Shown: one piece after another, positions 17,705 through 21,140 of the stretch | Layout: each line of letters starts with the position of its first letter | Numbering within the stretch: the first letter of the stretch is position 1 | Virus record (IMG/VR): IMGVR_UViG_3300031669_006556 | Length of the DNA: 64,000 nucleotides | From: a virus | Strand: one strand, 5' to 3' | The notes under the pieces: generated by a model | Databases searched by the model: none | The model's input: the letters and a program-made list of their open reading frames with translations, nothing else | Told to the model about the DNA's origin: nothing | Translations under genes and position numbers: made by a program

Positions 17705-19108
17705 TTACTTTCCATTATTTCCTGTTCCTTTTTTCACAATAGTTCCCCATCCTTCAACACCTCTTATATATTGCCAATTTCCTTTTACAGAAAACCATGC
17801 AATCATAGGATAAATAAGAGGTTCAACAAATGCAACAGCTAATAATTTAATTACATCCCTTTTTCTCTCATATTTATGGAATGTTAATTCTTCAAATAAT
17901 ACAGACCATGAAGACATAAATACAGCAAAAGCATAAATAAAGAGATATAATAATCCAAAGAATCCCCAATTAATTAAACCAGTTGCGGCTAAGTAAATAG
18001 TAAATCCAAATCCAACAAAAGCAAGAAGAGGTGCTAACCATTCAAAGAATAACCAAAATGGATATCCAAGTAATCCTAATTTTCCATATTTTTTATTTAA
18101 GAACATCACTTTATGTTTTCTAAGTGCGTACACTAGTCCTCTAGCCCACCTTGCTCTTTGGCTTTCTAAAGATTTATAATCAGAAGGAACTTCAGTCCAA
18201 CATAATGGGTCAGGAATATAAGTAACTTCATATTTTTCATCTTTTTCAGCCATGTATCTTCTCATACGAATAACCATTTCCATATCTTCTCCAATAGCTT
18301 TAGTATCATACCCTCCTGAATTAATAAGTATTTCCCTATCAAATAATCCCATTGCACCAGATATAAGAAGCAATCCATCTAATTGTGACCAAGCCATTCT
18401 ACCAAGTAAAAATGCCCTAGTATATTCAAGAGCTTGCCATCTCGGTAAAAATTTTTGTGGTAAATTAATTTTTTTGATAACACCATTTTCAACTTCACAT
18501 GAATTCATAATTCGAATTACACCACCAGTTCCAATAACTTTTTTGTCTTTTTCTTCAAGGAATGGCTTTACTAATTTAGTGATTGAATCAGGTTCTATCA
18601 CACAATCAGCATCCATAATCAAAACAAGGTCATTCCTACAAATATTGATACCTGCATTACTAGCATCAGCTTTACATCCACCATTAACTTTATCTACAAC
18701 AGTCAATTTTGAAAATTCCTTATTTCTTGATTTGTAAATTCCTTTTATTTTTTTACAAGGGATTCTATATTCAAAAAAGTAATTAGCTTTTGATAGCTTA
18801 AACGTATCTTTTAAGAGTTTAAATGTATCATCAGTAGACCCATCATTAACAATAATGACCTCAAAATTTCGATAATGTAATTTCATAAGTGTTTTAACAC
18901 TGTCTATAATGTTTGCACTTTCATTATAAGCTGGAGCAATAATAGATACTGATGGTGATAATGGTGAAGTTGCCACGGCATTGTAATCTACATAACTATT
19001 TTTTCTTAGGTAATTTCTTAATTTTTTAACCGAGAAATATCCTAGTACAAAATAACAAATAAAAATAACTAGTGTAAATAAAAACACAAAATTTATAAAG
19101 AACCACAT
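17705..19108 (-). CDS. family-2 processive glycosyltransferase (cellulose/chitin/PNAG-synthase-like), multi-pass membrane
   Basis: DDGSTDDT, DADC (DxD), QRARWARG (QxxRW); transmembrane segments at both termini. Confidence 0.7.
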   Translation of the reverse strand: MWFFINFVFLFTLVIFICYFVLGYFSVKKLRNYLRKNSYVDYNAVATSPLSPSVSIIAPAYNESANIIDSVKTLMKLHYRNFEVIIVNDGSTDDTFKLLKDTFKLSKANYFFEYRIPCKKIKGIYKSRNKEFSKLTVVDKVNGGCKADASNAGINICRNDLVLIMDADCVIEPDSITKLVKPFLEEKDKKVIGTGGVIRIMNSCEVENGVIKKINLPQKFLPRWQALEYTRAFLLGRMAWSQLDGLLLISGAMGLFDREILINSGGYDTKAIGEDMEMVIRMRRYMAEKDEKYEVTYIPDPLCWTEVPSDYKSLESQRARWARGLVYALRKHKVMFLNKKYGKLGLLGYPFWLFFEWLAPLLAFVGFGFTIYLAATGLINWGFFGLLYLFIYAFAVFMSSWSVLFEELTFHKYERKRDVIKLLAVAFVEPLIYPMIAWFSVKGNWQYIRGVEGWGTIVKKGTGNNGK

Positions 19109-19119
19109 AATATTATTTT

Positions 19120-20340
19120 TTAATTAATTTTTTTATCAAGTACATGCTTAATGATGATATTGTAATTTTTGTAATCAGAATCCATCATCTTTTTCAATTG
19201 AACATCACCAACTTCACCCATATTTTTAATTGCCTTAACACCTTCAATTTGAAGTTCTGTATCTTCTTCAATATCAACAACATTTTGAAGAAAGCGAATT
19301 GTTTTTGGGTTTGCTATTTTTCCTAAAGTTTTTATGATTTCTACTTTATTTTCGTATGGTTCTGTTTTGTATATTTTTTTCAAAGGAGAACACAATGGTT
19401 CAACATTTAAATCCCCTACTACTTCAATTGCTAACTTAACAACCTTTTCACTTGGATGATAAAGCATATTGTTTAAATCATCTATGGTTTTTAGTTGTTC
19501 ATATTCTCTCATCATTCTTAAACAAAACATACCTACACTATGATTATCAGAAACTAACCATCTTCCAAAATAAGGAGGAGTTATTTTTGATTCAACCATA
19601 AGCTCATGAAGAGTAATTTGTTCCCAAACTGAAAAAGGATGGGTCAAATGTTCTAAAAATGAAAAAGCATCTTCTACAGCTCCAGATAATCTTACCATTG
19701 CAATTTGAGCTTCCATTCTAAGAACATCATTATTAGAGTTGATATATTTCATCACCTTTTCATTATAGTCAATAATTTCAAGATGAGATAATTCTTTCAA
19801 TGCTTTAACTTTCTTATGCCATTTCCTGCTGTATAGCTTTTTCTTTGTATCATCAATTAAACCTAAATGAAAATATAATTTTCTTAGTTTTGCTAAAACA
19901 TCTTTAGGCATCATTAACGCTACATCAATTATTTGGTCAATTAATATGTTTCTTCTAAACTGGCTATTACATATCTTTTTAAATTCCACCTGAGTAATAA
20001 TTTTATCATCAACAGCATCTAATATCAATGTTTGATATTTTTCAGTTAATGAAGCTTTAATTTTAGCCCGTTTTTCCATTCTTCTTCTATTAATTAGAAC
20101 AAAAAGTAGAATTAAAACCATTGCAGAAAAACAAATTACAATTGAACCAATCAATAGGTTCATGAATGCAAAAGAAGTCCCGAGTATTACAATTTGTTTT
20201 AAAAATAGAGTTTCAGCTCCATGTCCTGTTACCGCATTCATAATAACAGGATTAAATTGTGTTTGCATAATGAAACTGCCAATAAATAGCAGCGTCATAA
20301 TAATAACAGGAATTAGTATTTTTATTTTATGTCTCATCAC
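19120..20340 (-). CDS. inner-membrane protein with HEAT/PBS-lyase-like repeats
   Basis: Two N-terminal transmembrane segments; C-terminal repeated helical units (KLAIEVVGDL..., VEIIKTLGKIANPKTIRFLQ..., EGVKAIKNMGE). Confidence 0.4.
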   Translation of the reverse strand: MMRHKIKILIPVIIMTLLFIGSFIMQTQFNPVIMNAVTGHGAETLFLKQIVILGTSFAFMNLLIGSIVICFSAMVLILLFVLINRRRMEKRAKIKASLTEKYQTLILDAVDDKIITQVEFKKICNSQFRRNILIDQIIDVALMMPKDVLAKLRKLYFHLGLIDDTKKKLYSRKWHKKVKALKELSHLEIIDYNEKVMKYINSNNDVLRMEAQIAMVRLSGAVEDAFSFLEHLTHPFSVWEQITLHELMVESKITPPYFGRWLVSDNHSVGMFCLRMMREYEQLKTIDDLNNMLYHPSEKVVKLAIEVVGDLNVEPLCSPLKKIYKTEPYENKVEIIKTLGKIANPKTIRFLQNVVDIEEDTELQIEGVKAIKNMGEVGDVQLKKMMDSDYKNYNIIIKHVLDKKIN

Positions 20341-21140
20341 TTATTAATATTTACAATTAATCCTACTCCAAATCCATATCTATTTCTCCACATATCAGGT
20401 TTATACTCCTCATACATGTAAGTTGCCGAACCACTTATTCTCATTCTATCTGCAAATATGTTACTAACATATCTTACACTTCCAGTATATGCAAATCTTC
20501 TATCTAAATCAGTTTCAATGATGAATGGTTCATCTTGAGCCGAACCGGCACTCACTCCAACTTCAAGGAAATTAATATCCTTAACAAACAATCGATATTT
20601 TAATGCATAGGTGGCCGTAATGTTAGGTTCTTTTAAATATAGGTATGTTTTTCCTTCAATCCAATGTCTACCAAAATATTTTTCTAAACCACCATTCACA
20701 AATACGGCATTACTTTCTGTAAATTGATAGTAGTTAATCCCTCCAGATACTAAAAATCCAGCACCTAATTTCTGCCAGAGTTCAAATATTATTCTATGGT
20801 TTGGGAACATATTATCAATGCCATAAGCATAATTTAACCAGAATGAAGTAGATTTGCTTTTACTTAAAGATTGCCAATAATCTAGTTCAAGCTGTACATT
20901 ATTCTGGTCTTTTATAACTTCGGAATATCTATATCCCAGGTTTACTTTCCCATAAATTGCAGTAAGATTCCCTTTATATCCAAAACCTGAATGAAAAATA
21001 TGAAAATTTACTGGAGATGGTTGCTGGTATATATCATTGTAATAACCAGTCAAGAATTGAAAATTCCCTTTATTCTCCTCTTGTGAAAAACCTGCTAATG
21101 AAAATATCATTAACAGGAGTATTAATAGAATTTTTCTCAT
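20337..21140 (-). CDS. outer-membrane beta-barrel protein
   Basis: Signal peptide MRKILLILLLMIFSLAGFSQ; alternating aromatic/hydrophilic beta-strand pattern. Confidence 0.45.
   Translation of the reverse strand: MRKILLILLLMIFSLAGFSQEENKGNFQFLTGYYNDIYQQPSPVNFHIFHSGFGYKGNLTAIYGKVNLGYRYSEVIKDQNNVQLELDYWQSLSKSKSTSFWLNYAYGIDNMFPNHRIIFELWQKLGAGFLVSGGINYYQFTESNAVFVNGGLEKYFGRHWIEGKTYLYLKEPNITATYALKYRLFVKDINFLEVGVSAGSAQDEPFIIETDLDRRFAYTGSVRYVSNIFADRMRISGSATYMYEEYKPDMWRNRYGFGVGLIVNINK

Follow-up and report, generated by a model that had tools for sequence, protein, structure and literature searches.

Among described systems, those closest to the locus reported here are the synthase-dependent polysaccharide pathways of bacteria, PgaABCD/IcaADBC and Bcs, and the exporters PgaA, BcsC and PelB are built as a tetratricopeptide repeat (TPR) region joined to a β-barrel. 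Among viruses, the nearest conceptual precedent is the synthesis of hyaluronan or chitin by chloroviruses, in which the synthase genes have been gained, lost and swapped among related viruses (PMC5408694). Bacteriophages also alter the surface glycans of their hosts, as with the seroconversion genes of the GtrABC/Oac type, and such changes are usually read as blocking adsorption. A review of jumbo phages argues likewise, and the jumbo-phage glycosyltransferase clusters that it discusses are non-processive modifiers of capsule or O-antigen (PMC7824862). Here we describe a three-gene cassette at positions 17705-21140 of the viral record IMGVR_UViG_3300031669_006556, of which we analyzed a stretch of 64,000 nt (the window). 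The three genes probably encode a self-contained, synthase-dependent polysaccharide system that is carried by a phage and serves in a Gram-negative Bacteroidota host.

The three open reading frames (ORFs) listed in a preliminary description of this stretch are all present on the minus strand, packed tightly head to tail. The first gene (20337-21140, 267 aa) encodes a YaiO-family outer-membrane β-barrel, putatively the exit pore for the polysaccharide; the second (19120-20340, 406 aa) an inner-membrane HEAT-repeat protein, putatively a synthase co-subunit or regulatory scaffold; and the third (17705-19108, 467 aa) a membrane-integrated family 2 glycosyltransferase (GT2), a putative processive synthase and translocase. 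Translation of the HEAT gene may start at a GTG at 20340, giving 406 aa, or at an ATG at 20337, giving 405 aa, the latter being the start picked by public gene callers (P0121). As had been proposed, the TGA stop codon of the barrel gene overlaps the HEAT start in AAGTGATGAGA, by 2 nt if the GTG is used and by 1 nt if the ATG is used. Given this overlap and the gap of only 11 nt between the HEAT stop codon and the ATG of the GT2 gene, the three genes look translationally coupled.

The GT2 is predicted to be a membrane-integrated, processive-type synthase. It scores above the Pfam cut-offs for Glycos_transf_2, Glyco_tranf_2_3, Glyco_trans_2_3 and Chitin_synth_2, and carries the motifs N88-D89-G90-S91, D166-A-D168, G273-E274-D275 and Q317-R-A-R-W321, all of which (as NDGS, DxD, GED and QxxRW) are invariant in 30 phage and bacterial homologues. 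The hydropathy profile shows a hydrophobic helix at the N terminus and about three to four more at the C terminus, so that the multi-pass enzyme with DxD and QxxRW motifs of the preliminary description is recovered here. Its suggested likeness to polymer synthases was borne out as well: the best curated families were PgaC/IcaA (1.3e-33), XrtG-associated glycosyltransferase, CelA and NodC, and BcsA cellulose synthases were the sole match among solved structures, over residues 248-381 (50-439 with a single-sequence query), a region that corresponds to the C-terminal catalytic and transmembrane half of the protein. Membership of a non-processive family had been named as the outcome that would speak against the proposal, and classification with hidden Markov models instead pointed to the membrane-integrated processive type. 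The single PHROG match of the GT2, to a GtrB-like family, is confined to 50 N-terminal residues. Past the last transmembrane helix there is an invariant W454-G455 pair (residues 453-456, at about 17743-17754 of the window), which we take to recall the WGT motif of chitin and hyaluronan synthases.

The two partner proteins also agree with what had been suggested for them, a membrane protein with HEAT-like repeats and a β-barrel with a signal peptide. The HEAT protein matches HEAT_2 (PF13646) at 31.2 bits, above the cut-off of 27.7, and its structural model (predicted local distance difference test score, pLDDT, 83.5) has a pair of long membrane helices ahead of an α-solenoid. The predicted topology is two-pass, with the N terminus inside, transmembrane helices (TM) at residues 6-24 and 63-81 joined by a short periplasmic loop, and the solenoid at residues ~117-401, which is predicted to be cytoplasmic on account of the basic stretch that follows the second helix (TM2). 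The C-terminal tail is strongly conserved (S388, Y390, Y393, H399, V400, D402 and I405) and may be a contact site. A sequence search of solved structures with this protein returned designed repeat proteins only, and among the long homologues obtained in a library-wide profile search with it, a Pfam scan for fused signaling domains turned up SPOR only, with no PilZ, GGDEF or REC fusion. The barrel protein matches YaiO at 77.2 bits in PF19413 (cut-off 23.9) and 72.3 bits in TIGR04390 (cut-off 32). It has a signal peptide, directly behind which stands an invariant glutamine, and the AlphaFold2 model (pLDDT 87.9) shows a signal helix and 14 strands forming an all-β barrel without TPR. There was no sequence match to this protein among solved structures, and no viral structure in BFVD reached a TM-score above 0.5 to the model, so that the barrel has no known viral counterpart there.

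When the cassette is set beside the characterized systems, the closest correspondence is to PgaABCD/IcaADBC. Both have a GT2 with the D, DxD, (T/G)ED and QxxRW motifs, a two-pass inner-membrane partner (in PgaABCD the small protein PgaD, to which the transmembrane hairpin of the HEAT protein may be compared) and a β-barrel exporter in the outer membrane; in addition, PgaC_IcaA is the best curated family of the GT2 and source databases call its close homologues "PgaC". Unlike Pga/Ica, the cassette has no PgaB and no element responding to cyclic di-GMP (c-di-GMP), its inner-membrane partner bears a cytoplasmic HEAT solenoid of ~300 residues, and its barrel, unlike PgaA, has 14 strands, belongs to the YaiO family and lacks TPR. 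The resemblance to Bcs lies in the alignment of BcsA with the GT2 core and in BcsC, which combines TPR with a β-barrel just as the bacterial TPR-YaiO proteins described below do, whereas the cassette is much smaller than BcsA-BcsB-BcsC and has neither PilZ nor BcsB. Taken together, a HEAT co-subunit, a 14-strand YaiO pore and the lack of both TPR and nucleotide second-messenger control are unusual for synthase-dependent secretion.

As for the viral comparisons, the chlorovirus synthases are likewise virus-encoded, processive-type GT2 enzymes that coat the cell (PMC5408694), a role that is here predicted from genes. Unlike the present case, the chlorovirus host is a eukaryotic alga, where an outer-membrane exporter is not required, and the algal system consists of a single enzyme with precursor enzymes and its product is proven, while the host of the cassette would be a bacterium with an outer membrane. 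The GtrABC/Oac genes share with the cassette the property of changing host surface glycans from a phage genome, but they modify an existing O-antigen or capsule, are non-processive, and involve neither a dedicated pore nor a polymer made de novo. Another YaiO barrel is encoded in Escherichia coli K-12 at 380069-384616 (L089), together with the deacetylase gene yaiS, the GT2 gene yaiP and the acyltransferase gene yaiX, a pseudogene disrupted by IS2. As in the cassette, the barrel gene there is accompanied by one for a GT2 with C-terminal hydrophobic segments; unlike the cassette, that locus has no HEAT gene and includes acyl-modifying enzymes. We considered YaiP and YaiO as close relatives of the phage proteins and rejected this, since the GT2 enzymes share 25% identity, confined to the GT-A domain, and the barrels cannot be aligned pairwise. 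The position of yaiO beside genes for a GT2 and a deacetylase nevertheless supports a more general link of YaiO barrels to glycan synthesis, and hints that the whole family may serve glycan export, a role that is not stated in the literature searched, a corpus that leaves out most subscription-journal papers.

The cassette appears to derive from a four-gene operon of Bacteroidota. Homologues of the GT2 with 64-66% identity lie on long Bacteroidales contigs, where the neighborhood comprises a CheY-like receiver (119 aa), a TPR-YaiO fusion (367 aa), a HEAT protein (545 aa) and the GT2 (479 aa). Among species-representative genomes, a scan confirmed at least 591 matches, the best 80 of which were all from Bacteroidota (Bacteroidales, Rikenellaceae-labelled metagenome-assembled genomes, Marinilabiliaceae, Paludibacteraceae, Chitinophaga, Mucilaginibacter and Sphingobacteriia). 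Among these matches, the colinear order receiver (REC), TPR-YaiO, HEAT, GT2 was found in 54 of the 63 loci with enough upstream flank. The preliminary description had allowed that the partners might turn out to be unrelated structural proteins; they are instead conserved operon neighbors. In the bacterial loci, TPR repeats are always fused to the N terminus of the porin, and many of the HEAT proteins have a SPOR peptidoglycan-binding domain ahead of their second transmembrane helix. The phage cassette keeps the gene order of this operon, with identities of 64-66% for the GT2, about 45% for the HEAT protein and about 30% for the barrel, but lacks the receiver gene, the TPR region (barrels of 264-277 aa compared to 355-460 aa) and the SPOR domain. 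No PgaB/IcaB de-N-acetylase is encoded in or beside the phage cassette, nor in the bacterial operons. We found no description of this operon, or of a phage version of it, in the literature searched.

The shortened form of the cassette is not peculiar to this window. The order barrel, HEAT, GT2 recurs on four IMG/VR contigs, including a 405-kb genome, on a 345-kb contig crowded with small ORFs that bear no annotation, and on further metagenomic contigs; in every phage copy the barrel has 264-277 aa and no TPR, the HEAT protein has 398-421 aa and no SPOR, and the receiver gene is missing. The barrel, used as query in a word-indexed search, returned 64 clusters, all in the range 146-299 aa and without a named bacterium among their sources. 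In a scan of metagenomes for short barrels, 54 loci were obtained, none of which had a receiver match, and HEAT and GT2 genes followed downstream in 25 of the 27 with enough flank. Neighbor joining of 122 GT2 sequences grouped the 43 of phage type into a single clade, recovered in 50 of 50 bootstrap replicates, with an environmental Bacteroidales clade as its sister. This phage clade is deep, YaiO identity falling to 34-38% and GT2 identity to about 62%, and every gene in it is intact. The ratio of nonsynonymous to synonymous substitution rates (dN/dS) was 0.08-0.25 across the three genes in 10 of 12 gene-locus comparisons, the other two giving no value, and since dS was saturated in all comparisons these figures are only rough upper estimates; dN was nevertheless far below dS. 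The trio is thus under purifying selection. The monophyly of the phage copies, the domain losses that they share, the persistence of the trio and the low dN together indicate a single capture, after which selection kept the cassette for a long time. The cassette had been described as phage-borne, which is borne out here, and it is conserved within a phage clade.

A search of GenBank phages with the DNA of 17000-22000 gave only short matches in neighboring genes; the nearest tblastn match to the GT2 among GenBank phages had 37% identity, on an 11.8-kb fecal contig; and neither the HEAT nor the YaiO protein had a tblastn match among 50,697 GenBank phage records. No PHROGs family matches the HEAT or YaiO protein. 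The possibility that the cassette is an anti-phage defense system was dropped because PADLOC gave no match for any of the three proteins.

The sequences on either side of the cassette suggest how it may be transcribed. Upstream, a GC-rich hairpin with a T-run (AGGCCGAGATGAAAACTCTCGGCTT, 21182-21206, minus strand), preceded by a CTTAACA...CTTAACA direct repeat, looks like the intrinsic terminator of the preceding cold-shock gene. It is followed by a promoter-like 16-mer, TTTTTGTTATATTAGA (21166-21181, minus strand), which ends 25 nt before the ATG of the barrel gene and is the putative promoter of the cassette. Downstream, a terminator-like hairpin with a T-run (AAGCCGAGATTTTTAATCTCGGCTT, 17658-17682, minus strand) marks the end of the cassette, and a second exact copy of TTTTTGTTATATTAGA (17642-17657, minus strand) stands as the promoter-like start of the next unit, with a Pyr_excise-like gene at 17639. 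This second arrangement is the combined terminator-promoter motif that had been noticed after the cassette. The two copies of the 16-mer are identical and the two hairpins nearly so. Because these two modules bracket it, the cassette looks like its own transcription unit, apparently assembled from a regulatory module of the phage. The 16-mer belongs to a family, TTTT(T/G)GTTATATTA, with 8 occurrences in the window compared to 0.54 expected, all on the minus strand, which is the gene strand (11291-11306, 17642-17657, 21166-21181, 35707-35722, 36903-36918, 43249-43264, 45064-45079 and 62666-62681). Several of these stand behind GC-rich hairpins and a TTAACA-N-TTAACA direct repeat. In a related phage (L008), the cassette is likewise flanked on either side by a hairpin-promoter module, in a version particular to that phage. 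Relative to the preliminary description, the additions made here are the parental operon in bacteria, the systematic loss of REC, TPR and SPOR in phage copies, the upstream twin of the module and the cytoplasmic HEAT domain.

The histories of the cassette and of the phage genomes around it do not agree. Four relatives (L008, L124, L137 and L143) share the flanks of the window, namely Ro/TROVE and cold-shock genes upstream and dCMP deaminase and NAD synthetase genes downstream, and one flanking gene of L124 is 90% identical to its counterpart in the window; in these four, GT2 identity is 62-64% and barrel identity 38-44%. The closest cassettes are found elsewhere (L005, L090, L095 and L096, with 86-90% GT2 identity), in loci that have at most one weakly similar flanking gene and mostly none. 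This disagreement between cassette and flank similarity suggests that the cassette may have been swapped among phage backbones, perhaps via recombination at the repeated hairpin-promoter modules. Promoter-early stem-loop (PeSL) modules are known from T4-type phages. The arrangement seen here resembles them in that repeated units of terminator hairpin and promoter flank an accessory cassette whose history disagrees with that of the backbone, and differs from them in both sequence motif and phage lineage.

From these observations we propose the following mechanism. The GT2 would be an inner-membrane enzyme that polymerizes a nucleotide sugar with its cytoplasmic GT-A domain and passes the chain through its C-terminal helices to the periplasm, a role suggested by its motifs and its homology to BcsA- and PgaC-type synthases. 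The HEAT protein, held beside it by its two-TM anchor, would act through its cytoplasmic solenoid as a co-subunit or activating scaffold; strict operon linkage and the conservation of TM2 and of the C-terminal tail argue for such a partnership. The YaiO protein, after export by Sec, would become a 14-stranded barrel in the outer membrane and form the exit pore, as its fold, the fusion of its bacterial homologues to TPR and its operon linkage suggest. Loss of the receiver, TPR and SPOR would uncouple production of the polymer from host signaling, loss of the receiver in particular freeing the system from host control, and the phage promoter alone would set the timing. The virus thus probably re-coats the infected cell. 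A polymer layer could mask receptors, so that competing phages would be blocked and progeny spared adsorption to doomed cells, and superinfection exclusion or receptor masking is a plausible benefit.

The locus has features of a synthase-dependent system in its processive-type GT2 and in an outer-membrane barrel encoded together with the synthase, a linkage kept in both bacteria and phages. Several observations weigh against such an assignment. To our knowledge, every characterized synthase-dependent system has a periplasmic TPR scaffold, which the phage porin lacks, its signal peptide standing directly before the barrel. The cassette includes no modifying enzyme (deacetylase, hydrolase or epimerase), and no c-di-GMP receptor was found, in that the three proteins have no PilZ, GGDEF or GAF domain; the bacterial operon has a CheY-like receiver in place of a c-di-GMP receptor, and the phage cassette has neither. 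The GT2 scored 116.6 bits against PgaC/IcaA (TIGR03937), for which the equivalog cut-off is 422.3, and 51.7 bits against CelA/BcsA (TIGR03030), for which it is 699.1. It is therefore PgaC-like and not a PgaC equivalog, and with scores so far under both cut-offs its polymer cannot be named. The main weaknesses are the missing periplasmic scaffold and the fact that, as modeled, the barrel resembles uptake channels more than export barrels, the nearest structures being the oligosaccharide channels CymA and OmpG. Lastly, in the chlorovirus precedent the virus-made hyaluronan had no obvious role in plaque assays (PMC5408694).

The alternative that fares best accepts that a polymer is made and places its benefit elsewhere, in gluing the cell to its neighbors or to a biofilm for spread, in shielding it from grazers or stress while a long infection runs its course, or in a conversion trait of lysogeny or pseudolysogeny from which the host would profit. 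We consider this unlikely overall, although cell aggregation that aids spread ranks close second to receptor masking. Polymers of the cellulose type and of the poly-N-acetylglucosamine (PNAG) type are known adhesins, and large phages have long infection cycles, both of which would fit such a benefit. The window also encodes a TonB-dependent receptor, a cadherin-like protein sorted by the type IX secretion system (T9SS) and flotillin/SPFH proteins, and these additional surface-directed genes point to broad envelope remodeling rather than to a single exclusion device. Against the lysogenic variant, a search of the window, though not exhaustive, showed neither an integrase nor a lysogeny gene.

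Less probable, in our view, is that no secreted polymer is involved and that the GT2 adds sugar to a membrane lipid, giving for example a glycolipid based on ceramide or diacylglycerol, or makes a glucan of the periplasm, with the barrel acting as a general or import channel. Motifs of the QxxRW type also occur in enzymes of the ceramide glucosyltransferase type, and the GT2 has a weak match (24.8 bits) to Glyco_transf_21, the ceramide glucosyltransferase family. The missing periplasmic scaffold of the phage copies and the similarity of the barrel to CymA and OmpG fit this explanation too. However, the best curated families of the GT2 are polymer synthases, with Chitin_synth_2 in addition to PgaC/IcaA, CelA and NodC, its C-terminal half matches only BcsA among solved structures, and the bacterial barrel is always fused to TPR and encoded in an operon with a GT2, TPR joined to a barrel being the build of PgaA, BcsC and PelB. 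That the cassette is a recently captured host fragment, carried passively and with no part in infection, is very improbable: its bacterial origin is clear, but the depth of a phage clade in which every gene is intact, the retention of the trio with dN far below dS, the domain losses common to all phage copies and the setting within the phage's own regulatory modules all speak against it.

The genomic context indicates that the window is part of a large phage of a Bacteroidota host, to judge by its gene content. All large ORFs lie on one strand, and PHROG matches include a clamp loader, a 5'-3' exonuclease, tRNA-His guanylyltransferase, nicotinamide mononucleotide adenylyltransferase (NMNAT), nicotinamide phosphoribosyltransferase (NAMPT), NAD synthetase and Ro/TROVE. 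The presence of a T9SS sorting-domain protein and the invariant glutamine behind the barrel signal peptide argue for Bacteroidota as the host. The tRNA genes number 17 (26482-26555, minus strand; also 76-159 and 36077-38825), of which 15 form a dense array, and one tRNA has a CTA anticodon (an amber suppressor, labeled "Pyl" by ARAGORN). TAG ends 12 of the 105 minus-strand ORFs in the window. The CTA tRNA raised the question of TAG recoding, which does not affect the finding, as the cassette genes read normally; if there is recoding at all, it would have to affect parts of the genome outside the window.

Several other genes of the window, all on the minus strand, are of note. A 638-aa protein (28772-30688) combines three cadherin-like repeats with a T9SS sorting domain (Por_Secre_tail, 3.2e-12), which implies that it may be a surface adhesin supplied by the phage. 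The TonB-dependent receptor (5773-7734), with Plug (1.5e-10) and β-barrel (1.2e-23) Pfam domains, is a second outer-membrane protein of the phage. Two SPFH-superfamily proteins are encoded at 30771-33224 and 40752-42305, one with major-vault-protein shoulder and repeat domains and the other flotillin-like; membrane-organizing proteins of this kind are unusual for a phage. Just downstream of the cassette are genes for two small exported proteins (15607-16083 and 16304-16726), neither of which has a family match. One bears a signal peptide and the other a signal of the lipoprotein type, its hydrophobic core followed by a Cys, and both could be further envelope effectors. A nearly complete set for NAD+ salvage and synthesis, comprising NMNAT, nicotinamide phosphoribosyltransferase and NAD synthetase (3915-4892, 8559-9734 and 13320-14204), may counter host defenses that deplete NAD. 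The cold-shock and Ro/TROVE genes (21227-21421 and 21488-23191) lie directly upstream of the cassette, a position kept in L008, L124, L137 and L143, and a gene for a Thg1-like tRNA-His guanylyltransferase is at 54524-55282.

If the trio is a polysaccharide secretion system, a broader proposal follows, which we advance tentatively and put slightly short of an even chance: that large phages of Bacteroidota carry, and swap among themselves, the smallest known complete trans-envelope polysaccharide machine, made up of synthase, HEAT co-subunit and 14-strand porin and lacking both a regulator and a periplasmic scaffold, and coat the cell on their own schedule. The cassette amounts to a natural deletion experiment, in which the receiver, TPR and SPOR are indicated to be dispensable and the GT2, the transmembrane HEAT protein and the barrel to be the core. 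If this is true, the phage version would define the functional core of an apparently undescribed exopolysaccharide pathway that is widespread in Bacteroidota and governed by a phospho-relay and not by c-di-GMP. The operon itself is apparently unstudied, occurs in culturable genera such as Chitinophaga and Mucilaginibacter, and would give the YaiO barrel family its first functional context; a regulator-free, three-gene secretion module would also suit the engineering of polysaccharide production. For phage biology, it would be the first bacteriophage counterpart of hyaluronan and chitin production by chloroviruses, and a complete system for synthesis and export would represent a takeover of the envelope beyond the glycan modification known from phages. 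It would thereby bear on superinfection exclusion, on the masking of receptors within Bacteroidota communities in nature, and on the ways in which huge phages safeguard an infection of long duration.

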